This document shows positions 31,972 to 50,024 of a DNA stretch of 64,000 bases, piece by piece. Below the pieces are notes generated by a model. It was given only the letters and a program-made list of their open reading frames with translations. It was not told the origin of the DNA and did not search any database. The stretch's first letter is position 1, and each line of letters starts with the position of its first letter. The position numbers and the translations under genes are program-made. Source of the DNA: a virus; IMG/VR virus record IMGVR_UViG_3300027967_000093. One strand, 5' to 3'.

Positions 31972-34900
31972 ATGCCAAACACGTTTACAGAACAAACATT
32001 CAGATCAACCTATAAGGATGATTATAAGGATAGTGACAACTATTCTCGTATTCTGTTCAATGCAGGTCGAGCACTACAGGCGCGTGAACTTACGCAACTA
32101 CAGACTATCATTCAATCAGAGATTAAACGGTTTGCAGATAACATCTTCCAGAAAGACGGTGTTCCTGTTTCTGCCGGTGGTGTTTCAATCAACAATTCAT
32201 ATGCTTTCATCAAGATTTCAAACGACCAGAATAACTCGTTTGATGATGTATCTGCACTGAAAGGTGTTGTACTTACGGGTGCAGACTCTTCAATTAAAGT
32301 AAAAGTTTATGAAGCAGTTGCTTCAGAAAACGGTGACCCTGATACCCTGTATGTACAATACACCGAGAACCCTAATACAATTAGTCCTAGTACGACATAT
32401 AACTCAGCCACACGTGTAACTCCAGGCGAGATTCTGTCGAACGGTTCTAACATCAATCTTACTGTACAGACCACTAACACTGCTGCAAACCCTGCAATTG
32501 GTTTCGGTAGTAATCTGTCTATTGGTGAATCACAATTTTATGTTAAGGGTCATTTCGTATTCGTTCCTAAACAAAGTATTTTCCTTGCGAAGTACGAGAG
32601 ATCTAAGACCGCTGACCTCGGATTTAAACTTGTTCAAGATATTGTAACTGTATCTGATACTGATACTTTATATGACAACCAGAATGCGACACCTAACCGT
32701 TCTTCGCCTGGCGCAGACCGTTATCGCATTAGACTTGTTCTTGCAAGACGAGACGAGGTTACATCGGGTGATACCTTTGTATACTTCTGTCGTGTAGAAG
32801 GCGGTGTAATTACTCATCAATTAACTTCTTCTGAAAACTACAATCAAATAAAAGAATTTGTTGCAACTCGCATCAAAGAGATTAACGGTGACTTCATTAA
32901 GAAGTACTGGAAACTTCGTGTAGAGCCCAATGGTTCAAATGCGAACTCCACTCTTATGTTGCGTATCGACCCAGGCACTGCATACATCGAAGGTAAACGT
33001 GTTGCGACTACTGTAACTCGAAGTCTTCCTATTCCAAAGGCAACAGACACTATTACTCGTGACGAAGAACAGATTGGTCTGGACTACGGTAATTACTACT
33101 ATTGGGATAGTGGTGTTGGTATGTTAGATATTGATACTGCCGAACAGGTAGTATTGTATGCAGGATTTGATGGCGCAGACTCTGCGATTGGTACTGCAAA
33201 CATTCGTGCAATTACCGAAGGGACTAATGCACTTCGTACTGGTGGATATACGTATACTCGTTCTCCATTATATAAAGCACACCTATTCAACATACATAGA
33301 ACCAACTTTAACCACACTTTACGTGACGTTAAGTCGGTCAAATCGAACACCAATACCCACTTAATTAACCTTGTTCAGGTTGCGGATAGTAGTGCCTATA
33401 TAGGTTCTGTTCTTCACGAACCAAAACAGAATGCACTTATCTTTGATACTCCGTTAAGTAGACCAAAAGGTTTCACTGACGTATCAATGACGTTTATGAA
33501 GAAGTATAACTTCACTGCTGATGGGGAAAACCATACTATTACCCTGACAGACTCAGGTGAAAGTTTCAACCGTGAAGCGGACATCTTAGTTGCATCTGCT
33601 ACCGAGTTTGCACCTGCGGGTGTATCTGGTTCAATCCAGTCCGGTAATAAAGACATCGTATTCTCTGGTCTGACCAATGGTGTCGCATACGAAGCAATCG
33701 TCTTTGTACGCAAGACTAATGCATCGGTCAAAACTAAGACTCTGACCGAAACTACTATCACTACGTCTCTAGATTCTAATGGTGCTGGTATTAAAGGTAT
33801 CAACCTAAGTCAGTCTGACATTTACTCTATCGAACGTGTAAGAAAGAATGACTCTGACGGTGAAGATATCTTCCCACACTTCATGTTCGATGCAGGACAC
33901 CATGTAACTCACTATGACGATGGTCGTCTGGTTTGGTCTGGTGGTGGTATCGATAGTGCTAACCAACCTATATTCGTTCGGTTTAAATACTTCGAACACT
34001 CGGTAAGTGGTCAGTTCTTTGCGGTTAACTCTTATGATGGTCAATTAGACTATCTTGATATCCCCGCACAGAAACTAGACAATGGTAACAAGGTTTCATT
34101 GCGTGACGTAATCGATTTCCGTCCTGCAACCGATGGTAGTGGTTCATACTCAGGTGGAACAGTTTGTCCTCTACCTGTCCCAGCTGACACTATCGAAGTG
34201 GATGCGGAATACTACTTGCCTCGTGCAGACAGATTGGTTATTTCTAAAGATGGTGAAATCCGTTATATTACTGGTTCATCTTCACTGAATCCAAAATATC
34301 CTGATGTACCTGTTGATTGTATCGACCTTTATAAAGTAAGGTTGAACCCTAACACGTTACATTCCCAAGATTTAAAAACTACCCTTATTCCACGTAAGGG
34401 TTATACCATGGCAGACATTAATAAGTTGGAAGAGAAGGTCGACCGTCTCGAAGAGATGACCACACTTTCACTTCTTGAACTTAATACCAAGTTCCTTTCG
34501 GTACTTGACTCTGCGGGTAATGACAGAACTAAGGCTGGTTTCTTTGTAGACAACTTCAAGAACCACCAACATTCACAAACTACTTCTCCGGAATATCGTG
34601 CTGCAATTGACAAACGTTCATTGTTGTTACGTCCTACTTTCGTAGAAGACTGTGCTGACTTGTTCTATGACAGTGGAAATGCAGGTCAACTTAGAACTAT
34701 TAAGAAAGATGATTTCTTGATGTTGGACTATAGTAATGTTGCATATGAGTCACAAGAACTTGCATCTAGTACTGAAAACCTTGCACCATTCTTCGTACCG
34801 CAAACAGTTGGTAACTTACTTCTTTCTCCTGAGACTGACTCTTGGAAAGAAACCGATAAGATTGGTGAGACTGTTGTTGGTCGTTCTACTGAATTTGACC

Positions 34901-37863
34901 TTAAACACGCACTCAACTGGAACAACTCGGAAAACGAGTGGTTCGGTGTCGACCCATCTGACCTCGAGGCCGGTGATGCTGCTACGTCATTCGTAAGTGG
35001 TACATCTACTGTTGTCACTCACAACTCTCTTGACACTGTCCTAATTGGTACAGAAACTACCGAGAAACTTGGTGAGTGGGTTAAGGTTGGTAACGTCACT
35101 GATGTTGAAACTCTGTATACCGAGACTGTAGAAATTTCACGTGAACGCGAAGAAGAGATTTCTCGTACTGCGATAGATTCATGGTGGGACGAGTATGGTT
35201 ACTATAGTAACAATTGGAATTTTTATGGTGATAATCAATATTATAATAGCAGTTACTTCTCCGGTCTAAATTGGAGTTGGTGGTGGTGGGCTGGTGAAGA
35301 AGTCACAACTGACATGTGGGATGTTGTTACGTCCGAGACACGTGACCGTGTAAAAACCACCAACACTTCTACATATGAAACTACTAAGACTATTCAGACT
35401 GAAAATACGTATGAAGGTACTGCTGAGGTTGTTACTTCAACTTCAACATCAAATACCGTCAACCGTATTGCGAGCGAATCAACTATACGTGACGTAGTCG
35501 GTAAGAAAGTTATTGATGTATCGGTCATTCCTTTCATGCGTTCAATCGAAATTCGATTCAAGGCTGAAGGTCTTCGTCCTAATACACAGTACTTCCCATT
35601 CTTTGATGGGTCTAACGTATCTTCATTCTGTAGAGAAGTTGCTACTCACCAATCGTTCTCTGATAATAAATACACCACTGCACAAGGTACTGGTGATGGT
35701 GAAGGTACTCAACGTACTACCCAAGAACATAGTGATGGTAAAGGTAACCTAGTATCTGATGCTGAAGGTACTATCATCGGTTCTTTCGAAGTACCGAATA
35801 ACGTTGCAATGCGTTTCCATACTGGACAACGTGAGTTTGTACTATTAGACGTAAATGCGCACGACTTCGGTGGTGCAATGTCTTATGCACGTGCAATGTT
35901 CTACTCACAAGGTGTACTTGAAGAGTATGAAGATGAAGTTAAACTAACTCGTGTACTTAAAGTTGTTGGTAGTCAAGATACTGAGATTGACCGTAGTGTG
36001 GATGTCCAATCTACTGTGTGGACAGAAACTCTTATTGATACTGAGATTGCAACTGACGTTAAGTCAAGTAACACTGTTACTACTCTTGTTACCGATACAA
36101 CAACTACAAGAGAACATGTTGGAACAGACGTTGCTTATGACTATAATTATTGGGATTGGATCACTCCTGTCGACCATACAACTGATACAACAACTCCGGC
36201 TGGTGCAACTGTTCAAGGTACACCAAACTCTGCGAGTTCTGTGCAGTATGACCCAGGCAACCGTGGTTCTGGTCACGCGCAAATAAACTTCTATGCAGAT
36301 CCACTTGCACAGACCTTCTTGATAACACAAAATAGTGGTGTGTTTGTTACTTCGATGGAGTTCTACTTCTCGAGTAAGGCAGACACTGCACCTGTATTCT
36401 GTGAGATTCGTCCTACAGTAAATGGTGTTCCGTCTTCTAGTAAGATTATTGCATACACCAAATTGTCACCTAGTCAAGTTAACTTGGTACCTGCGGGTGC
36501 GAATAACAAGACTATGTTGCAGAATGGTACTACCTTTACCTTTGACTCTCCTGTGTATCTTGCACAAGGTGAGTATGCGATGGTATTGCGTCCAGGCAAC
36601 AATGACCCTAGTTACAACGTTTATGTTGGTACTGTGGGTGAACGTCAACTTGGTTCTTCGGAAGCATTTATTTCACAACAACCTACTCTGGGTGGATTCT
36701 TTAAGTCTCAGAATGGTAAGTTGTGGGAACCTTCTTCTGGTCAAGATTTGTCATATAGAATCAATGTTGCACAGTTTGTATCTTCTGGTAACGCAATCCT
36801 CGAGAATGCTAACATTCCTCCGGTTGCATTGTCAAGAGACCCACTAGTAGTTGATTCTGGTTCTAACTCTGTACGAGTAATGTTGAAAGGTCATGGTCTC
36901 CGTGATGGTGACAAGACTTGGATTCGTGGTATTGACTCTGCGACTGACTTTGGTAACGGACTGACAGGTGCGGATGTAAATGGTGTACGTACTGTTATCG
37001 ACTATGATAACTCTGGTTACACTTATCAAGCAACTTCTTCTGCAACTTCACGTAAGTGGTTCGGTGGTTCTTCTGTCACTTCACAGAGAAACATCAACTT
37101 TGAAGAACTTCGTCCTGAGATTGATATCACCCAACCAAGTAATACCAATGTGACACTTTCTGCGAAGACAACTTCACAACAGTCATTGGCTGGTAGTGAG
37201 ACTCGATTCGTGAAAGAAAGTCAGTATCAAATCATCGAGAACAAGAAGAACAATGTCTTCTCAAGTGCTCGTGCGATTTATAATAGAAGAACCGAGAATC
37301 TTACTGGTGCAGGTAAACTTGCAGGTGAACGTTCTGCGACTGTACAGGTAACAATGAAATCAACTAACCCGTTTGTTTCACCTGTAATTGATTTACAACG
37401 TGCGAAACTGAACTGTGTTCACAACTTGATATCTAAACAAGATTCTTCTGCGACTGATGGTTTCAATGTTCCATTGACTTATATCGGAGAGAACAATCCT
37501 TCTTATGGTACTGAGTCTGCGAAACATATTACTAAGGTAACTACTCTTACCGAAGAGTCAGTTGGTCTGAAGATATTGTTGGCTGCAAACAAACCACCAC
37601 AGTCTGACTTCCTTGTATACTATAGAGTTGCGACTGCGGCAGATAACATTCAGAGTTCACAATGGTTCTTGGTATCACCTGAGAATAACTTACAACCAGA
37701 CACTAACAAAAATGTCTTCCGTGAGTATCGTTATCTGGTAGGTGGTGACGGTGGAACTATGAGACCATTCACTAAATTCCAAGTTAAGATTGTGATGAGG
37801 TCTACTAGTTCTGCTAAAGTCCCATCGTTCCGTGACTTGAGGATTATATCACTGGCAGTATAA
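31972..37863 (+). CDS. Large virion structural protein (VrlC/DUF4815-like)
   Basis: Y.DDY....Y.RILF..GRALQARELTQLQ, PGADRY.I.L, YLPR.D, YTMADI.KLE..V..LE..T.LS.LE, GFFVDNF, DPLAQTF. Confidence 0.8.
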   Translation: MPNTFTEQTFRSTYKDDYKDSDNYSRILFNAGRALQARELTQLQTIIQSEIKRFADNIFQKDGVPVSAGGVSINNSYAFIKISNDQNNSFDDVSALKGVVLTGADSSIKVKVYEAVASENGDPDTLYVQYTENPNTISPSTTYNSATRVTPGEILSNGSNINLTVQTTNTAANPAIGFGSNLSIGESQFYVKGHFVFVPKQSIFLAKYERSKTADLGFKLVQDIVTVSDTDTLYDNQNATPNRSSPGADRYRIRLVLARRDEVTSGDTFVYFCRVEGGVITHQLTSSENYNQIKEFVATRIKEINGDFIKKYWKLRVEPNGSNANSTLMLRIDPGTAYIEGKRVATTVTRSLPIPKATDTITRDEEQIGLDYGNYYYWDSGVGMLDIDTAEQVVLYAGFDGADSAIGTANIRAITEGTNALRTGGYTYTRSPLYKAHLFNIHRTNFNHTLRDVKSVKSNTNTHLINLVQVADSSAYIGSVLHEPKQNALIFDTPLSRPKGFTDVSMTFMKKYNFTADGENHTITLTDSGESFNREADILVASATEFAPAGVSGSIQSGNKDIVFSGLTNGVAYEAIVFVRKTNASVKTKTLTETTITTSLDSNGAGIKGINLSQSDIYSIERVRKNDSDGEDIFPHFMFDAGHHVTHYDDGRLVWSGGGIDSANQPIFVRFKYFEHSVSGQFFAVNSYDGQLDYLDIPAQKLDNGNKVSLRDVIDFRPATDGSGSYSGGTVCPLPVPADTIEVDAEYYLPRADRLVISKDGEIRYITGSSSLNPKYPDVPVDCIDLYKVRLNPNTLHSQDLKTTLIPRKGYTMADINKLEEKVDRLEEMTTLSLLELNTKFLSVLDSAGNDRTKAGFFVDNFKNHQHSQTTSPEYRAAIDKRSLLLRPTFVEDCADLFYDSGNAGQLRTIKKDDFLMLDYSNVAYESQELASSTENLAPFFVPQTVGNLLLSPETDSWKETDKIGETVVGRSTEFDLKHALNWNNSENEWFGVDPSDLEAGDAATSFVSGTSTVVTHNSLDTVLIGTETTEKLGEWVKVGNVTDVETLYTETVEISREREEEISRTAIDSWWDEYGYYSNNWNFYGDNQYYNSSYFSGLNWSWWWWAGEEVTTDMWDVVTSETRDRVKTTNTSTYETTKTIQTENTYEGTAEVVTSTSTSNTVNRIASESTIRDVVGKKVIDVSVIPFMRSIEIRFKAEGLRPNTQYFPFFDGSNVSSFCREVATHQSFSDNKYTTAQGTGDGEGTQRTTQEHSDGKGNLVSDAEGTIIGSFEVPNNVAMRFHTGQREFVLLDVNAHDFGGAMSYARAMFYSQGVLEEYEDEVKLTRVLKVVGSQDTEIDRSVDVQSTVWTETLIDTEIATDVKSSNTVTTLVTDTTTTREHVGTDVAYDYNYWDWITPVDHTTDTTTPAGATVQGTPNSASSVQYDPGNRGSGHAQINFYADPLAQTFLITQNSGVFVTSMEFYFSSKADTAPVFCEIRPTVNGVPSSSKIIAYTKLSPSQVNLVPAGANNKTMLQNGTTFTFDSPVYLAQGEYAMVLRPGNNDPSYNVYVGTVGERQLGSSEAFISQQPTLGGFFKSQNGKLWEPSSGQDLSYRINVAQFVSSGNAILENANIPPVALSRDPLVVDSGSNSVRVMLKGHGLRDGDKTWIRGIDSATDFGNGLTGADVNGVRTVIDYDNSGYTYQATSSATSRKWFGGSSVTSQRNINFEELRPEIDITQPSNTNVTLSAKTTSQQSLAGSETRFVKESQYQIIENKKNNVFSSARAIYNRRTENLTGAGKLAGERSATVQVTMKSTNPFVSPVIDLQRAKLNCVHNLISKQDSSATDGFNVPLTYIGENNPSYGTESAKHITKVTTLTEESVGLKILLAANKPPQSDFLVYYRVATAADNIQSSQWFLVSPENNLQPDTNKNVFREYRYLVGGDGGTMRPFTKFQVKIVMRSTSSAKVPSFRDLRIISLAV

Positions 37864-41016: not shown

Positions 41017-43884
41017 ATGTCAGATAATAAGGCATTACCGTTAAAGTTAAAAGACAGTGATGGTAATCTCCAACAGATAACTGCATCGGAAAAGAACTAT
41101 GTTGCTTACCTTGCGGGTCTCCAAACCGCACAAGCAGATAGTTCTGATGTAGGACTTCTTACACTCTCATCGGGTGGGAATCGTCTCATCGGTTCTCTAA
41201 CCGATACCTATTACCCTGAACCTGTTGGGACTCACCCATACAACCAAACATCTGTTGTTACCACAACAACAAACATGTATCAGATAAACGGTACTGTACT
41301 TGAAAATGACAGTGACTGGAGAAAACCAGTAGGTCATTATGATGGTAATGTTTATGAGATGTCAGAGACTGACTTAAATACTTTCGTTGATGACCTCAAT
41401 GGACGTATTGCATTATCAGACTATCCTGGCTCACTGAAATTATCTTCTACACGTCCAAGTGCAGACTATGATATTCTTATCCCGAGTGTACTGACCGACC
41501 AACGTGCAGATTCTTCTGGTTCTCCTTTTACTGTAAATGATTATAGTATCTGGCGCAGAACTAGTATGACCGCCCCCACATCTATTCGGGATGACCTGAA
41601 TGGTGTGAGTAGTATTGTTGGTATCAAAAGAAGTTTCGGTGACAGTGGTGACTACCAAGGTCTGACTAAACTTACTGATCGTCAAGTTCAAGTAACTATT
41701 GGTCAACGTGCAAAGACAAGACGTGCGATTGATAACAATGTCGGTTCATACGAATTAAGAACATCTTCTCAGGGTGCACCTGTTGTTGGTACTTGGAAGA
41801 ATGTTGGTGCAGCAGTAAATACTATTCGTCTTGTTGACGAACAGAACTATACGCGCACCCGCGTAAGTGCGTACACGCGTGACCGCAACTCTGCATATAC
41901 TCGTGTCAGTTCAAGAACAATCAATAGTTCCTTTGCGGGTAACTATATTGGTAATTATACAAGAGACTTTGCCGGTAACTATACAAGGGGATTCCTTGGT
42001 AATTATGTTGGTGATTTCACTGGTAACTATACTCGTGACTTTGCAGGTAATTATACAAGAGATGTACAAACTAACTTTGCGGGGGATTACGTAGGTAATT
42101 ACTCTCGTGGATTTATCGGAAACTATTCAAGAGATTTTGCAGGTGAATATAGTCGCAACTTCGTAGGTAACTTCCTTGGGGAATATACGAGAACCTCTAC
42201 AAGAGGAAGACCATCTGCATTTAGTAGAGTAAGAAGTTCTAACTATTCACGAAACTTTGCGGGTAATTACACTCGTGGATTTATTGGAGACTATGCGGGT
42301 AACTTCGTAGGGGAATATTTAAGAACCTCTACTCGCACTCGTACTTCTAATTATGCGCGTACCTCAACACGAATCCGAGAATCCGCGTATGTTAGAATAC
42401 GCACATCGATATATGCGGCCGACTATACTCGTACTCGTAATTCTAATTATACTAGAACCAGTACTCGTACTCGTAATTCTAACTATACTAGAACATCTAC
42501 TAGAACAAATGCGGCAGATTTCATCGGAAATTATATTCGATTAAGAACCTCTTCGTATACAAGAAATAGTACTAGAACACGTACATCTTCATATCTAAGA
42601 GGATTTACTGGAACTACTGATTATATTGGGAACTACTCTCGTACCGACTTTACCCGAATTAGAATAACTAATATCGAAGGACAAAACTTCTATTATACTG
42701 GTAACTATATCGGCCCAAGTCAGTCTTTCACTGGGAACTTCATAGGTACATCACAATCTGTTCGTTACTCTATGGCCGCAGTTGAGGTTGGTGTGTATGA
42801 TGATGAACGTTGGGTAAAAACCAATTACACTTCTTCCGGATATACAACATTCAGTGTATATTGGGGTAATGTTGAAGTGTATAATTCTGGAGTTCAACCA
42901 TTATATACTGACAGTACGGTGGCTGTTGCTGGTGGTTATGTTTACAGTAGACAAGGAGACCCCATCACTGGTGGCGGTGGTTCTGGGTTTAGTTACTCAA
43001 TATACAATGTAAATCGTAATATTGCTGGTAGTTATACGGGTAATTATATTACCACCCGACAGTCTGCGTTCAGTAGAGGTTTCACCGGAGACTTTACTGG
43101 TAATTATACTCGTAATGTTACCGATGACTATACCAGAACAAGAACTTCTAGTTATGCCGGAGACTTTGTAGGCGACTACACACGTGACTTCGCAGGTAAT
43201 TACGTAGGTGATTATACGCGTGACTTCGCAGGTAATTACATTGGCGACTACACTAGAGACTTTAGTGGTGATTATGCACGTGATTTCATAGGTAACTACA
43301 CTGGTGATTATACAAGAGATTTCGCAGGAAATTATGTTGGAGACTATACCCGAGTATCTACTCGAACATCTGCACGTACTAGATTCTCTGCATATGCTCG
43401 TACCCGTGTATCAAACTATTCACGTGACTTCATAGGAAACTACTCAAGAACTTTTGCAGGAGATTATATTGGTGATTATGCCCGTATTTCTACACGTACT
43501 CGAGTAAGTTCATATAGTCGTCTGAGAAATTCTGCATACACTAGAACAAGAACTTCTACATACACTGACAATTACGTTGGAGATTATGTTGGTAACTTCA
43601 TCGGTGAATATACGCGTACCAGAAACTCTGCGTTTACTCGTAATGACACCTTAGATTCTACTCGCACTAGAGTATCAACTTATACCAGAGGTAGAAACTC
43701 AGCCTATACCCGAGACTCTACTCGTTCACGTTCATCCAGTTATGTCGGAGAATATACAGGGAACTACTCTAGGGCGTTTGTCGGAAACTACTCAAGGTCT
43801 TTTGTAGGTGATTATATAGGTCAGACAATTGGTAACACAACTTACGCAGTAGAAACGTATACCTTGTATGTAAGAACTGCATAA
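41017..43884 (+). CDS. Self-complementary repeat (hairpin) fibre-like protein A, 955 aa
   Basis: ~278-aa N-domain, 63-tetrapeptide arm, ~150-aa centre, 63-tetrapeptide complementary arm, C-terminal ETYTLYVRTA. Confidence 0.8.
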   Translation: MSDNKALPLKLKDSDGNLQQITASEKNYVAYLAGLQTAQADSSDVGLLTLSSGGNRLIGSLTDTYYPEPVGTHPYNQTSVVTTTTNMYQINGTVLENDSDWRKPVGHYDGNVYEMSETDLNTFVDDLNGRIALSDYPGSLKLSSTRPSADYDILIPSVLTDQRADSSGSPFTVNDYSIWRRTSMTAPTSIRDDLNGVSSIVGIKRSFGDSGDYQGLTKLTDRQVQVTIGQRAKTRRAIDNNVGSYELRTSSQGAPVVGTWKNVGAAVNTIRLVDEQNYTRTRVSAYTRDRNSAYTRVSSRTINSSFAGNYIGNYTRDFAGNYTRGFLGNYVGDFTGNYTRDFAGNYTRDVQTNFAGDYVGNYSRGFIGNYSRDFAGEYSRNFVGNFLGEYTRTSTRGRPSAFSRVRSSNYSRNFAGNYTRGFIGDYAGNFVGEYLRTSTRTRTSNYARTSTRIRESAYVRIRTSIYAADYTRTRNSNYTRTSTRTRNSNYTRTSTRTNAADFIGNYIRLRTSSYTRNSTRTRTSSYLRGFTGTTDYIGNYSRTDFTRIRITNIEGQNFYYTGNYIGPSQSFTGNFIGTSQSVRYSMAAVEVGVYDDERWVKTNYTSSGYTTFSVYWGNVEVYNSGVQPLYTDSTVAVAGGYVYSRQGDPITGGGGSGFSYSIYNVNRNIAGSYTGNYITTRQSAFSRGFTGDFTGNYTRNVTDDYTRTRTSSYAGDFVGDYTRDFAGNYVGDYTRDFAGNYIGDYTRDFSGDYARDFIGNYTGDYTRDFAGNYVGDYTRVSTRTSARTRFSAYARTRVSNYSRDFIGNYSRTFAGDYIGDYARISTRTRVSSYSRLRNSAYTRTRTSTYTDNYVGDYVGNFIGEYTRTRNSAFTRNDTLDSTRTRVSTYTRGRNSAYTRDSTRSRSSSYVGEYTGNYSRAFVGNYSRSFVGDYIGQTIGNTTYAVETYTLYVRTA
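41851..43815 (+). repeat. Coding 12-nt-period degenerate repeat (xGNY/xRDF/xRTR/xSAY words)
   Basis: Tetrapeptide periodicity in frame with the ORF; arms 41851-42606 and 43060-43815, 756 nt each. Confidence 0.9.
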
Positions 43885-43928: not shown

Positions 43929-46900
43929 GTGGCGGCATCTGATATACCATTAAAAAGTTATGGAGTTAACGGAGACCTTCAGGAGGTAACCCCTTCTGAA
44001 GAGAACTACCTTGCATATCGTGCAGGACTTCATATATCGACAAGTCAGGGAACTGATGAGGGCGACCTGACTCTTACTAATAGTGGCCATTCTGTCGGTC
44101 AATTCGTTGATACCTATTTTAATCAGGCGGATGGAACACACCCCGCAACTTCTATTACTTCTGGTTCAACAACCACTACATTATATCAACGTGACGGAAC
44201 TGCACCTTACAATGGTCTTGACTATCTAAGACCTATTGGATATAATACAAGTGGTGATGTGGGTTTCCACGAATTCACCGATTCTGATATGGATACCTTA
44301 TGTACTCGTCTGAATGCACGTATTGCAGTATCAGACTATCCTGGCACATACTACCTTGGTACCTCTGCACCTAGTGCGGATTATAGTGTGGACATTGCGG
44401 ATGTCTATACCGACACCGTAGGTAACGGAACATCTACAACATATAACATCTATCAAAGAGACACAATGACTGCCCCCACGACTGTTCGTCCGATAGGGAT
44501 TAAGTACAGTGGTGGTTCTTATGATGGATTGATTGAGTTAAATGATGCCCAGATAAACTATACACTTGGACAACACTGTAGAACTTTACGTGGTAAAGAT
44601 GGTGCGATTGGTTCGTACCAACTAAGAAGTTCTGCACAGGGTGTTCCGGTATCGCCAGGCACATGGGCTTCGAAGGGTACTGCGACCAATACCAAAAGGA
44701 CTACGTCTGAGGTTGCATACACCAGAACGCGTTCATCTTCTTATACAAGAGACCGTTCTTCTACATATGCAAGAACCCGAAATTCAATATACACCAGAAA
44801 TAGTACCGCAGTTTTTGCAGGTGACTTTGTTGGCAATTACGTTGGTGATTATACAAGAGATTTTGCGGGTAACTATGCAAGAGACTTTGCAGGTAATTAT
44901 GCAGGGGAATACGTAGGAAATTATTCACGTACAAGAACATCTGCATTTACTCGTAATAGTACAGACACCTTTACTCGCGATTTTACCGGAAACTATGCAC
45001 GTACTCGTGTGTCGACCTATACTCGAGATAGTCTGAATATCTTCACTGGTAACTTTATCGGGAACTACACTCGCACCAGAATAAGTGCATATTCTCGTAA
45101 CAGTACTCGAAATAGAATAAGTGCATATTCACGTACAAGAACATCAACATACACCACAGTGTTTTCCGGCAACTATATCGGAAACTTTATTGGTGATTAT
45201 ACACGTACCCGAGTTTCCAACTATGCAGGAACATATACAAGAACACGTAACTCAGCCTATACTCGCACACGCGTGTCTGCATATACACGCGACCGTGTAA
45301 CTGATTTCACCGGAGATTATATCGGTGATTATGCAAGAACTCGTGTATCTGCGTACAGCCGAACCAGTACCCGTACCAGAACTTCTGCATACAGTAGAAC
45401 TAGATCCTCCACATATACACGTGACCGTACATCAACCTTCACGGGTGACTTCGTTGGTAATTACTCACGGAACCGAAATTCTGCATATACCAGAACTCGT
45501 GTATCAAATTATGCGGGGGACTTCACTGGCAATTATTCGCGTACTCGTGTATCCGCATATACTAGAGACAGAGTAACAAACTTTACCGGAGACTTCATTG
45601 GTAACTATACCCGTGGTCGCATCTCTACATATACACGTGACAGATTACAGACTTTTACTGGTGACTTTGTTGGAAACTATTCGCGCACCTTTATTGGCGA
45701 TTATTCACGTACCTTTATCGGAAACTATTCTCGTGCGTTCGCTGGTGACTATGTCGGAAACTATGCACGGACTCGCGTAACAGATTCAACTAGAACTCGA
45801 AACTCAAACTATACACGCGCATCAACAAGAAACCGTTCCTCTGCATATTCGCGTGACCGTGTTACTGATTTTGCAGGTAACTTTGTTGGGAACTACACTC
45901 GTGATTTTGTCGGTAACTTTGTCGGTAATTATTCTCGTGGATTTGCAGGTGAATATACTGGTAACTATGCAAGGTCATTCTTAGGCAATTACACCGGAAA
46001 CTACACAAGAGGATTCCTTGGTAATTATGTCGGTGATTTCGTAGGCAATTATGCTCGTGGGTATGGCGGTAACTTTACTGGAAACTATGCTCGTGGATTT
46101 GTGGGTAACTATGGAAGAACACGAAACTCAGCATATACCCGAGATAGTACTCGTACATCTACCCGTGTTCTGAACTATCAAAGAATTTCGACTCGAACTT
46201 CGACTCGTGTATTTGACTACACTAGAATCAGTACAAGGACTTCGACTCTTACATTGTCATATAGTCGTGTAGTTTCATACAGTGGTGACTTTACGGGTAA
46301 CTATACCCGCACCCGCACGGCAGTAGGTGACTATACGCGAACCCGCACCGCAACTGGTACCTATACTCGTACTCGTACTGCGACCGGAGATTATACTCGT
46401 GCACGTGCCGAAGGTGTAACATATACCGGAAACTACACCAGAACATTGTACTATGCAGGTGACTTTACTGGTAATTACACTCGTACCTTGTACTATGTTG
46501 GTAACTTTACGCCTACTGCCGACTACACTCGAGTTAGCACTGCAATTGCGTACTATACAGGGAACTACACACGTACCGGATACTATGTCAGATACAGTAT
46601 TTCTGGTGGGACGTATGTCGGAAACTATACTCGTGTTTTGTTATTCGCAAGAAGTCCACCGTCTGATCCATATGCGATTGAATATTACACAAAAACATCC
46701 GCATATACTCGTACTCGTTCTGGAACAACAAGTTACATAGGTAACTATACTCGTACACTTGATTACACGAGAGTTCGAACCCCGACATTATACTACTTAG
46801 GTAACTATGTTGGTGCATCTGATGGTACCGCAGAATATACTCGTTCACGCGCAGGTGGTACAGTCGAAGGCCAAACGATTTACTATGTCGGTAACTATTC

Positions 46901-48776
46901 ACGTGTCTTGCCGGCCTCCACTCGTACTAGTACTGCGACCGGAGATTATACTAGGGTTTCTACTCGTACTAGTACTGCGACCGGAACTTATACTCGTGCA
47001 CGTGCGTCTACGTTATATTACACAGGCAACTATACTCGTACATTATATTACGTAGGCGACTACACTCGCACATTGTATTATGTTGGTAACTATACTCGTA
47101 CACTGTATTACGTAGGTGACTATACGCGCAACTCTACTCGTGTTTCTACGGCAACAGTGTATTATACCCGTACCGGATACTATGCAGGTGACTTTACTGG
47201 TAACTATACTAGATTAGGTTATTATGCAGGAGAATTTGTCGGTGATTATACACGTACCGGATACTATGCAGGAAACTTCATAGGTGATTATTCTCGTGCG
47301 TTCGCTGGTAATTACTCAAGAACTCGTAACTCGGCATACGCACGTATATCAACACGTACTCGTTATTCTGCATATGCTCGTACTCGTATTACTGACTCTA
47401 CAAGGACTAGAGTATCTGCTTACGCTGCGGACTACACTCGCAGCCGTTCTTCTGCATATACTAGAGTATCAAGTAGAACAAGATTTTCTGCGTACACTCG
47501 TGACAGATTACAGACCTTTACTGGTAACTTTACACGTGACCGAGTGACAAACTATGCGGGTAACTTTATTGGAAACTATGCACGTACCTTTGTAGGGAAC
47601 TATACCGGAGATTACACTCGAGATTTCGCAGGAAATTATGTCGGGGATTTCATTGGAGAATACGCACGTACATCAACACGTACTCGTTTCTCTGCGTACA
47701 CCCGTGACCGTATTTCTACTTACTCAAGGAATCGTGTGTCTGCATACGCTAGAACTCGTATAACCGATTATATTGCAAACTATGTGGGTAACTACTCAAG
47801 AACATTTACTGGTAACTATACTCGTAATAGTACCGCAGTTTTTGCAGGTAACTTTGTAGGTAATTACTCACGTGACTTTGCAGGTGAATACACTAGAGTA
47901 TCAACCAGAACTTCTACTCGTGACTTTGTGGGTGACTATACTCGTGACTTCACTGGTAACTATGCAAGAACTCGTATAACCGATTATATTGCAAACTATG
48001 TTGGTAATTATTCTCGCAACTTTGCAGGAAACTATACCAGAGACTTTGGTGGAAATTATGTGGGTGATTATACCCGAGACTTTGCAGGTGAATACACTCG
48101 CAACAGTACAGTAGATTTCGCAGGTAATTTCGTAGGTAATTACAGTAGAAACTTTGCAGGTAACTACGCCAGAGACTTTGCCGGTAATTATGTTGGCGAT
48201 TACACCCGAGACTTTGCAGGTGAATATTCAAGAGACCGACAAACCGACTTTATTGGAGAGTACACTGGTAACTTCGCAAGAGACTTTGCGGGTAACTATA
48301 CCAGAACTTTCGTAGGTGATTTTACTGGCAACTATACTCGTGGATTCCTTGGTGAATATACGCGTGACTCTCTGCAAGACTTTACTGGTAACTTTGTTGG
48401 GAACTACTCACGTGACTTTGCAGGAGAATATACAAGGGTTCGTGTATCCAACTATGTTGGGGACTTCACTGGTAACTACAGCCGAGACTTCATTGGTGAG
48501 TATACACGAACGTCTACTCGTACTTCTACTAGAACTCGTGTATCAACATTTAGTAGAACTAGAACTTCTGCGTATTCTGCGGACTATACACGTAATCGCG
48601 TAACTGATTTCACCGGAGACTTCTCAGGAAATTATTCTCGCAACTTTGCAGGTAATTATTCTAGGTCGTTTATCGGCAATTATTCTCGTGACTTTGTAGG
48701 GAACTATGTTGGTACCACACTAGACTCGGGAACTGAGGTTATTGAAACCTATACACTTTATGTAAGAACTGCATAA
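43929..48776 (+). CDS. Self-complementary repeat (hairpin) fibre-like protein B, 1615 aa (GTG start)
   Basis: Paralogous N-domain (PLK...G.LQ..T.SE.NY.AY.AGL; RIA.SDYPG; GSY.LR.S.QG.P) and identical C-terminus ETYTLYVRTA. Confidence 0.8.
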   Translation: MAASDIPLKSYGVNGDLQEVTPSEENYLAYRAGLHISTSQGTDEGDLTLTNSGHSVGQFVDTYFNQADGTHPATSITSGSTTTTLYQRDGTAPYNGLDYLRPIGYNTSGDVGFHEFTDSDMDTLCTRLNARIAVSDYPGTYYLGTSAPSADYSVDIADVYTDTVGNGTSTTYNIYQRDTMTAPTTVRPIGIKYSGGSYDGLIELNDAQINYTLGQHCRTLRGKDGAIGSYQLRSSAQGVPVSPGTWASKGTATNTKRTTSEVAYTRTRSSSYTRDRSSTYARTRNSIYTRNSTAVFAGDFVGNYVGDYTRDFAGNYARDFAGNYAGEYVGNYSRTRTSAFTRNSTDTFTRDFTGNYARTRVSTYTRDSLNIFTGNFIGNYTRTRISAYSRNSTRNRISAYSRTRTSTYTTVFSGNYIGNFIGDYTRTRVSNYAGTYTRTRNSAYTRTRVSAYTRDRVTDFTGDYIGDYARTRVSAYSRTSTRTRTSAYSRTRSSTYTRDRTSTFTGDFVGNYSRNRNSAYTRTRVSNYAGDFTGNYSRTRVSAYTRDRVTNFTGDFIGNYTRGRISTYTRDRLQTFTGDFVGNYSRTFIGDYSRTFIGNYSRAFAGDYVGNYARTRVTDSTRTRNSNYTRASTRNRSSAYSRDRVTDFAGNFVGNYTRDFVGNFVGNYSRGFAGEYTGNYARSFLGNYTGNYTRGFLGNYVGDFVGNYARGYGGNFTGNYARGFVGNYGRTRNSAYTRDSTRTSTRVLNYQRISTRTSTRVFDYTRISTRTSTLTLSYSRVVSYSGDFTGNYTRTRTAVGDYTRTRTATGTYTRTRTATGDYTRARAEGVTYTGNYTRTLYYAGDFTGNYTRTLYYVGNFTPTADYTRVSTAIAYYTGNYTRTGYYVRYSISGGTYVGNYTRVLLFARSPPSDPYAIEYYTKTSAYTRTRSGTTSYIGNYTRTLDYTRVRTPTLYYLGNYVGASDGTAEYTRSRAGGTVEGQTIYYVGNYSRVLPASTRTSTATGDYTRVSTRTSTATGTYTRARASTLYYTGNYTRTLYYVGDYTRTLYYVGNYTRTLYYVGDYTRNSTRVSTATVYYTRTGYYAGDFTGNYTRLGYYAGEFVGDYTRTGYYAGNFIGDYSRAFAGNYSRTRNSAYARISTRTRYSAYARTRITDSTRTRVSAYAADYTRSRSSAYTRVSSRTRFSAYTRDRLQTFTGNFTRDRVTNYAGNFIGNYARTFVGNYTGDYTRDFAGNYVGDFIGEYARTSTRTRFSAYTRDRISTYSRNRVSAYARTRITDYIANYVGNYSRTFTGNYTRNSTAVFAGNFVGNYSRDFAGEYTRVSTRTSTRDFVGDYTRDFTGNYARTRITDYIANYVGNYSRNFAGNYTRDFGGNYVGDYTRDFAGEYTRNSTVDFAGNFVGNYSRNFAGNYARDFAGNYVGDYTRDFAGEYSRDRQTDFIGEYTGNFARDFAGNYTRTFVGDFTGNYTRGFLGEYTRDSLQDFTGNFVGNYSRDFAGEYTRVRVSNYVGDFTGNYSRDFIGEYTRTSTRTSTRTRVSTFSRTRTSAYSADYTRNRVTDFTGDFSGNYSRNFAGNYSRSFIGNYSRDFVGNYVGTTLDSGTEVIETYTLYVRTA
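44721..48707 (+). repeat. Coding degenerate tetra/hexapeptide repeat
   Basis: Outer arms 44721-46160 and 47268-48707 (1440 nt each); inner arms 46161-46508 and 46920-47267 (348 nt each). Confidence 0.9.
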
Positions 48777-48841: not shown

Positions 48842-49306
48842 ATGAGTTTTAAACGATGGATGGATAATGCATTTTGGGAAAATCCTGAGAAATCCAAAGT
48901 CAATTGTATCCTTGAGATGGAAGATGATATTGGTCGTCAAACCAAACAAGTGATGTTATTGAGTCGTCTTAATAAAGACGGTAGTGAAAATGAAATGTTC
49001 GCTGAAGTTGTGGGTGCACTAGGTGAAGAATCTATTGACCGAAATACCGAAGACCGTAAAGTTCGGAAAGCTGCAGAAATCGAAGAACGTAAACAACGTG
49101 ACACCGAACATGCACGTGCACGTAAACTCGAAGAACTTTTTAACTACAAACTAGAAGTCTTTGAGACAGAAGAGATTAAAAATTCCAAGAACCGGAAGTT
49201 AAAGGCAAAACTTAGACGCGCAAAATCTAAAGTTGAAGTTAACCTATATGCAATGATGTTGTTACAAGAAGCACTTGAGGCGAATGAGAATGTCGGAGAA
49301 GAGTAG
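48842..49306 (+). CDS. Hypothetical protein, possible fibre assembly chaperone
   Basis: NAFWENPEKSKVNCILE recalls tail-fibre-assembly protein N-termini; charged helical C-half; directly after fibre genes. Confidence 0.4.
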   Translation: MSFKRWMDNAFWENPEKSKVNCILEMEDDIGRQTKQVMLLSRLNKDGSENEMFAEVVGALGEESIDRNTEDRKVRKAAEIEERKQRDTEHARARKLEELFNYKLEVFETEEIKNSKNRKLKAKLRRAKSKVEVNLYAMMLLQEALEANENVGEE

Positions 49307-50024
49307 AGGTTATGTACTTGTTGCATCTAACAAGATAAACTTCTATCGATATGCAATTAACCTTGCAGAGTCGATTCTAGATTATTATGAAGACGCAAAG
49401 ATTACATTGTTTTGTGAACCATGGATGTTCGAGGAACAACACCGAGAACTATTTGATAATGTCGAATGGTGCAGTAGTCACTATCGTGCTAAACTCGAAG
49501 GTATGGCTCGTTCTCCTTATGACCTGACTATGTACCTCGATGTTGATATGGAATGTGAACACGAAGACATTGCGATATGTTTCGATGAACTGGAGAGACG
49601 CGAAGAGGATATTCTATTCTCTGAACTCACAGATGACCGCGAGTATGTCTATGCAGAACGTCAGTTTGATACACCTGAAGGTAAGACTAAATTTACCTTG
49701 TGTGGGGGTGTCGCTCTATACGACATGACTAAACCTATCGTAAGAGAGTTTATGTCTGACTGGGAGATGCTCACTAAAGACCAAATGGATGGTAATTGGT
49801 GGCCTGACGGATACATCGATAGTCTCAAGTCATGGGATCAGTTTAGTCTCTGGTGGTTGACTGAAAGAGAAGATAAATACAAAGACCTCAAGTACGGTAT
49901 ACTTGAAGACGATTTGCGTTGGAACTATTATAACGCATTCAACTGGGCAATCACCAAACCGACTGGCCCTGTTGTTATTCGACACTACTCTTGTGGTTTA
50001 GATAAAGACGGATATATCATATGA
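49290..50024 (+). CDS. GT-A fold glycosyltransferase-like
   Basis: RGYVLVA, SPYDLTMYLDVD (DxD), GGV.LY, WDQFSL, RWN, VIRHY. Confidence 0.65.
   Translation: MSEKSRGYVLVASNKINFYRYAINLAESILDYYEDAKITLFCEPWMFEEQHRELFDNVEWCSSHYRAKLEGMARSPYDLTMYLDVDMECEHEDIAICFDELERREEDILFSELTDDREYVYAERQFDTPEGKTKFTLCGGVALYDMTKPIVREFMSDWEMLTKDQMDGNWWPDGYIDSLKSWDQFSLWWLTEREDKYKDLKYGILEDDLRWNYYNAFNWAITKPTGPVVIRHYSCGLDKDGYII

Follow-up and report, generated by a model that had tools for sequence, protein, structure and literature searches.

The closest described counterpart of the protein considered here is the needle at the tip of the long tail fibre of phage T4, in which gp37 is folded as a six-stranded antiparallel trimer (PMC7291167) stapled by HxH-iron sites (PMC6957217). 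The subject of this report is fibre B, a protein of 1615 amino acids (aa) encoded from a GTG start by the open reading frame 43929..48776 (+) of a 64,000-nucleotide stretch of DNA from an uncultured marine T4-like phage (IMG/VR record IMGVR_UViG_3300027967_000093); the whole stretch is called the window below, and fibre B the window protein. The two repetitive arms of this protein match word for word in reverse order, beyond chance. We regard it as probable that the protein is a fold-back fibre belonging to the baseplate/tail-fibre module of this phage, namely a beta-ribbon with its register set by a side-chain pairing code. As in the needle, the chain of a T4-type fibre would then run to the tip and back in antiparallel strands with both of its ends proximal, this fold being predicted for the window protein. 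The needle is about ten times shorter per arm than the window stem, and the window protein has no sequence or profile similarity to the tips of gp37 and lambda Stf (Pfam, E<=0.01; PDB chains, E<=0.1).

Mirror complementarity of the two arms

The coding sequence of the window protein was divided as follows.

43929..44720 (+), N-terminal globular domain (N-domain), family-defining; aa 1-264, non-repetitive, its last strand predicted to begin the hairpin
44721..46160 (+), outer N-arm; aa 265-744, in frame, 120 tetrapeptide words
46161..46508 (+), inner N stem; aa 745-860, 24 words (tetra- and hexapeptides), facing aa 998-1113 at i+j=1858
46509..46919 (+), irregular tip; aa 861-997, 137 aa, Tyr/Thr/Gly-rich
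46920..47267 (+), inner C stem; aa 998-1113, in register pairing with the inner N stem
47268..48707 (+), outer C-arm; aa 1114-1593, in frame, 120 tetrapeptide words, mirror-complementary to the outer N-arm
48708..48776 (+), C-terminal tail (C-tail) and stop codon; aa 1594-1615, conserved, ending in an ETYTLYVRxA motif, predicted partner of the last N-domain strand

Words were assigned to the classes R (xRx[RS]), S (xSx[YF]), G (xG[NDE][YF]), F (xRxF) and T (x[TQNAD]x[FY]). With the outer arms read antiparallel, 94 of the 120 word pairs were R:G or S:F, and the count rose to 111/120 when the pair T:G was also allowed. Shuffling of the word order (20,000 shuffles) gave 35.0±4.7 matches with a maximum of 57, and shuffles in which RS, FG and RT units were kept intact gave 35.3±5.5 with a maximum of 60. 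Register shifts of 1-12 words left 21-44% matching, and a parallel reading of the outer arms matched at 31/120. The match is far above chance, since the shuffle, shift and parallel controls all score far lower.

The same register continues through the inner stem, where aa 745-860 stand opposite aa 998-1113 as 24 words with boundaries that coincide on both sides, so that each arm extends over 596 aa without an indel. Among these words the tetramer pairs were R:G throughout (14/14), and 10 hexamers face hexamers (e.g. TRTLYY opposite TAxGxY), with Leu or Phe against Gly at position 4 in 8/10. In the tip (aa 861-997) the outer-arm matrix gave no convincing internal pairing or sub-hairpins, local scores being <=15, and the idea of a branched tip was not endorsed. 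All prolines outside the N-domain lie in the tip. The 1192 residues of the stem are drawn from 14 amino-acid types, with zero Cys, His, Lys, Met, Pro and Trp, and the paired stem (44721-46508 and 46920-48707) was observed to hold ~170 Arg against 85 Asp plus Glu, an excess of ~85 Arg.

Residue statistics were taken from the mirrored arms. Mutual information reached 1.41 bits at an offset of -1 and 1.39 bits at +1 over a periodic background of ~1.0, which sets the even word positions of the two arms face to face. At offset -1, the counts for position 2 against position 2 were R:G 64, R:S 32, G:T 11, R:R 0 and G:G 2, and those for position 4 against position 4 were Y:Y 40 and R:F 42; the most frequent pairs at offset +1 were R:Y 89, G:R 45 and S:F 31. 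Informative residues alternate with T/S/A/V/I and N/D/T positions, and this alternation is that of a beta strand, with a period of two residues and a single coded face. The predicted contacts, Arg:Tyr at +1 and Arg:Gly/Ser, Arg:Phe and Tyr:Tyr at -1, are consistent with these counts. An initial log-odds matrix, with scores added up along entire anti-diagonals, proved too noisy for use.

At the nucleotide level the longest inverted matches in the gene were 14-20 nucleotides, so no inverted repeat was found in its DNA. The N-arm DNA and the reverse complement of the C-arm at the mirror register were 28% identical, which is background and no better than at other shifts, and all three reverse frames of the arm DNA were full of stops. 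The complementarity is confined to the protein level, as the lack of an inverted DNA match, the background identity and the stop-filled reverse frames show. These results bear on the idea that the arms do not pair physically and that the mirror pattern is an evolutionary by-product, for example of an old inverted duplication of the DNA that is read in a different frame, or of a low-complexity compositional constraint. The repeats are indeed of low complexity (14 residue types), and local alternation of RS and FG lifts matching at even shifts to ~40%. Against an origin of this kind stand the background identity at the mirror register and the stop-filled reverse frames, the unit-preserving shuffles (at most 60 matches, with 111 observed), the indels at mirror positions and compensatory flips described below, which need selection on the pair, and the recurrence of the mirror property with other word codes in distant relatives. 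We find a by-product scarcely credible.

An earlier note on this DNA, made from the sequence alone, had given the same outer-arm coordinates and a hand count of about 95 of 120 pairs under two rules, with most of the remainder under a third; exact counting gave 94, and 111 with T:G. It had proposed shuffled and shifted registers as a check, and neither came near the observed pairing. Its figure of 596 aa per arm agrees with the outer and inner words, which share i+j=1858 with zero indels around the 137-aa tip, and its statement that the DNA is not an inverted repeat holds at a mirror identity of 28%.

Fibre A, relatives and covariation between the arms

A paralogue, fibre A, lies upstream of the window protein.

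41017..43884 (+), paralogue fibre A, 955 aa; N-domain of the same type, same C-tail, shorter complementary arms, other word order, globular domain at the tip

The arms of fibre A hold 63 words each, and 53/63 pairs matched against 15.7±3.3 for shuffles; its mirror alignment covers 266 residues and begins exactly at the N and C anchors. Cognate pairing amounted to 84% in fibre A and 92.5% in fibre B, and cross-pairing of A with B to <=51%. The word order of fibre A is unlike that of fibre B, and with this difference between the paralogues each N-arm fits its own C-arm only. A globular domain of ~90-110 aa (motifs like ...YWN..V......GYTYYR.G...) was seen at the tip of fibre A (window 42760-43060) and recurs at stem tips or between stems in relatives such as P0017, P0020 and P0023; P0014 has FG-GAP-type repeats in its place. 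These recurrent domains are likely receptor-binding modules.

Among representatives of 50%-identity clusters, 354 matched the N-domain of the window protein at E<=1e-3; 274 of these reached E<=1e-10, and 163 reached E<=1e-30. Identities were 36-69%, and 25 homologues of near length match the domain. The family is marked by an N-domain with a GTAxDTK motif, repeat arms and an ETYTLYV C-tail. Among the members listed, 92 were complete (N motif and ETYTLYV tail), with lengths from 381 to 2282 aa; the C-tail motif is present in the window protein, fibre A, the homologue from Phage C48C1 and these 92 relatives, which are metagenomic and many of which have mirror-complementary arms. No Pfam family (E<=0.01) and no PDB sequence matched the N-domain of the window protein, and a profile match to PHROG 15773 (unknown function, E=1e-6) covers aa 439-527 only, inside the low-complexity arm. 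The structural protein of Synechococcus phage S-RIM2 was considered as a member and rejected, as it has unrelated low-complexity repeats of the TGNV type and lacks both the N-domain and the C-tail.

For 25 of the 63 complete relatives tested, the best local mirror alignment began at points equidistant from the N and C anchors (±1, mostly 0/0), and in many relatives this alignment was ungapped with equal spans (61/61 around a 5-residue turn, 122/122, 146/146). In a crude fixed-frame test the own C-arm was the best partner of the own N-arm in 18/87 representatives, where ~1 was expected by chance. Divergent repeat chemistries among the relatives suggest several alternative pairing codes on one scaffold, xGTF standing opposite ETTF in some subfamilies and GVRDVNF opposite GPQPQNF in others. 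The matrix trained on the window protein gave only weak scores in relatives with other word codes, and plain mutual information at the anchored register gave no discrimination in distant relatives. As a separate observation, the Arg/Gly words are replaced in P0030, P0105, P0153 and P0071 by Cys-containing DPCTF/PAQPT, GVRDVNF:GPQPQNF, Pro/Gly/Asn-rich NPPG and GNPxIxY units.

The sole full-length homologue in the phage collection was the hypothetical protein WJE88074.1 of Phage C48C1 (OQ984149.1; record taxonomy Kyanoviridae), with 3347 aa and 35% identity over 94% of the query. Using a matrix trained only on the window protein, its residues N 267-1275 aligned with the reversed C 3324-1371, all large gaps skipping globular inserts in the C-arm while the N-arm continues. 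Two ungapped stretches of ~260 residues scored 275 and 169, with word shifts at <=61 and <=60. In the C-arm of the same protein (L001:6001-16044, product aa ~2010-2130) a block of ~75 aa (RKTRHRSYLYY... to ...NFSGQY) occurs twice in tandem in nearly identical form, either through recent duplication or through faulty assembly of the repeat.

Close relatives were compared for changes in the two arms. Four of them, P0009-P0012, are 84-88% identical mutually; relative to P0009 and P0012, both P0010 and P0011 carry +36 aa after aa 347 in the N-arm and +38 aa after aa 1202 in the C-arm, the mirror of aa 347 by the anchor rule being aa 1206. Between P0017 and P0018, indels of a single word are seen on each of the two strands that flank an inserted globular domain. 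Fibre A and its orthologue P0120 share 59% identity; the pair at word 9 reads G:R in one protein and R:G in its counterpart, and over words 18-22 both arms have changed and are complementary within each protein. Matched indels and compensatory flips of this kind, read from sequence comparison, are difficult to account for if the arms do not pair physically and would be the protein counterpart of compensation in RNA stems. Arms of unequal length in homologues, which the earlier note had named as counting against its reading, were not found; lengths change together through matched indels, and the arms of the C48C1 protein align end to end once bulges are skipped.

The DNA occurs in marine sediment and seawater metagenomes, and no RNA datasets were listed among the sequencing runs containing it. 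Contigs from four runs gave identical copies or fragmentary variants, which were too sparse for a covariation test. Many joints in these contigs resemble assembly breaks induced by repeats.

Predicted fold and alternative arrangements

AlphaFold2 (AF2) was applied to the minimal relative P0042 (420 aa) with a family alignment of 105 sequences, giving a mean predicted local distance difference test (pLDDT) score of 82.5 and a predicted template modelling (pTM) score of 0.74. The N-domain of this model had pLDDT >90, and uninterrupted strands ran over residues 256-290 and 382-418, their ends giving sums of 674 and 672 against the 673 expected from the anchor rule. Scores of 90-98 were obtained over the first ~25 residues of each arm and the C-tail (97-98 in the C-tail, which is part of strand 382-418). 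A fold-back hairpin that starts inside the N-domain and closes with the C-tail is predicted by this model, with confidence for its base only. For the N-domain fold, Foldseek searches against PDB and BFVD returned no match at E<=1e-3, and with VIA-align the highest Z was 5.8 (MABP / perforin-2 P2 type), T4 gp11 scoring 2.7, with no clear structural relative.

In the fold-back fibre, the N-terminal domain (~245 aa) would lead, and the chain would run outward as an extended beta strand of ~615 residues made up of the last N-domain strand and the 596-aa N stem. It would then traverse the irregular tip of 137 aa and return antiparallel alongside itself over ~615 residues, the conserved C-tail docking on the N-domain. 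Even positions of both arms would lie on one face, interlocked by size and chemistry (Arg:Gly/Ser, Arg:Phe and Tyr:Tyr, with Arg diagonal to Tyr), and in the inner stem Leu or Phe would face Gly. Only one register satisfies such a code, since the order of word types is aperiodic. The beta-ribbon geometry of the entire stem, its length of at most ~200 nm (from ~0.33 nm per residue x 615 paired residues), a role in host recognition and any trimerisation are inferred; a trimer of hairpins is compatible with the fold-back fibre. The giant antiparallel hairpin with a unique register put forward in the earlier note is supported by the mirror code, the matched indels and the hairpin at the base of the P0042 model.

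Several points weigh against the fold-back fibre. The distal two thirds of the arms of P0042 had pLDDT <50, in a stretch over which the alignment carries no information. Single-sequence AF2 prediction of aa 665-1193 of the window protein gave a pLDDT of 28.5 and was unusable, and no confident structure of the arms of this protein was obtained; the longest strand runs of that low-confidence model (aa 716-747 and 1117-1148) are only roughly mirror-placed. The nearest database phage, C48C1, has no listed host. A ribbon of two strands that extends over 600 residues, carries a net charge of ~+85 and lacks an obvious hydrophobic core may be unstable alone, and the true assembly may for that reason be more complex, e.g. 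a trimer.

A different arrangement would be a beta-solenoid, beta-helix or meander with local contacts, its mirror symmetry coming from two oppositely graded halves. Short repeats containing Gly and Asn are common in beta-helical fibres, and the low-confidence model of aa 665-1193 has some strand runs of 8 residues. Neither the antiparallel, word-by-word complementarity over 1300 residues nor the matched indels are explained by such a fold, however, and in the C48C1 protein one arm is broken up by globular domains where its partner continues. The P0042 model has, in its confident part, two uninterrupted strands of 35-37 residues; a solenoid was among the outcomes that the earlier note had set against its own reading, and this only confident model shows at its base a long two-stranded hairpin and no solenoid. 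We judge local-contact folds very improbable.

The complementarity of the sequences would be the same if pairing took place between chains, with the N-arm of a subunit running antiparallel to a C-arm from a second subunit, either in a domain-swapped or antiparallel duplex or in a trimeric needle of six strands in which every N-arm is in contact with two C-arms. The peaks of mutual information at both -1 and +1 also fit two flanking partner strands, and the T4 gp37 needle is a six-stranded antiparallel trimer of this type (PMC7291167). The monomer model of P0042, however, closes the hairpin within one chain with high confidence near the base, minimal relatives turn in ~5 residues between arms of 61 aa, and conservation of the N-domain always goes with that of the C-tail. 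A duplex of purely antiparallel make-up would moreover be bipolar, unlike phage fibres. Pairing between chains is accordingly rated unlikely.

Returning to the fold-back fibre, we lean with some reserve towards a wider proposition, in which a digital code resembling base pairing (Arg:Gly/Ser, Arg:Phe, Tyr:Tyr and Leu:Gly, with other codes in other subfamilies) would zip one chain into a ribbon of hundreds of residues. The aperiodic order of words would act as a barcode that sets the register and keeps co-expressed paralogues apart, and the stem would evolve like RNA stems, with compensatory changes, matched indels, bulged domains and stems flanking inserts. If true, an addressable pairing code, hitherto characteristic of nucleic acids, would exist in a natural protein, and it would explain the single register and the length of a very long low-complexity fibre. 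It would also provide rules by which stems, bulges and tip domains can be read from sequence in hundreds of uncharacterised marine phage proteins, as well as design rules for programmable beta-ribbon materials. The choice of register in repetitive beta structures would become directly testable, and natural relatives of ~400 aa exist for this purpose.

Genome context and comparison with known systems

Homologues of the T4-type baseplate wedge and hub/lysozyme proteins are encoded just upstream of the fibre genes. The nearest relative of the baseplate wedge protein is that of C48C1 (38%), and it is ~28% identical to cyanophage proteins. Between the wedge and hub genes, 31972-37863 (+) encodes another giant structural protein of 1963 aa, which matches PHROG 358 (unknown function) with 1025 bits. 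Directly downstream of fibre B lie two genes, 48842-49306 and 49275-50024 (+), the products of which, of 154 aa and 249 aa, share 69% and 66% identity with those of the genes that follow the C48C1 homologue; both are far better conserved than the fibre (35%). Sequence searches of three downstream proteins against Pfam, PHROGs and PDB gave sub-threshold hints only, including a GT2 glycosyltransferase at E=0.11 for the 249-aa protein. The two proteins could be folding or modification factors for the fibres.

No description of this fibre family or of Phage C48C1 was found in the literature, and none of a word-by-word pairing code or barcode for gp37. The earlier note had stated that no described phage fibre is built in this way; this stands for the code and the scale, and it does not stand for the topology, as the T4 gp37 needle is a small fold-back precedent. 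The needle (PDB 2XGF) has HxH iron-binding repeats, unlike the 1192 stem residues of the window protein with their zero His. The triple beta-helix and beta-spiral shafts of phage and adenovirus fibres are parallel trimers of locally repeating turns in which a chain has no long-range pairing with itself. The long-range mirror covariation and the strands of 35-37 residues in the P0042 model speak against a shaft of this kind, and the fold searches gave no match in either direction. Borrelia OspA and staphylococcal SasG form long thin beta rods with no conventional hydrophobic core and with cross-strand contacts of side chains, as in the presumed ribbon. Rods of this type are short many-stranded meanders, and to our knowledge none is a single hairpin of hundreds of residues with a complementary code.

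The C48C1 protein WJE88074.1 shares with the window protein the N-domain, the C-tail, the R/S/G/F word code and mirror-complementary arms; it differs in being twice as long, with arms of ~1000 aa and several globular domains bulging from the C-arm only, and it is annotated as hypothetical with no architecture recorded. The remaining likeness is to the stem-loops of nucleic acids, a conceptual analogue without homology. Common to both are antiparallel self-complementarity, a small alphabet, a unique register set by aperiodic order, compensatory changes, matched indels and, in relatives of the window protein, bulges and stems that flank inserts. In place of hydrogen-bonded bases, the fibre would use side chains along a single face of the presumed beta ribbon, words of 4 or 6 residues, and steric and cation-pi rules.

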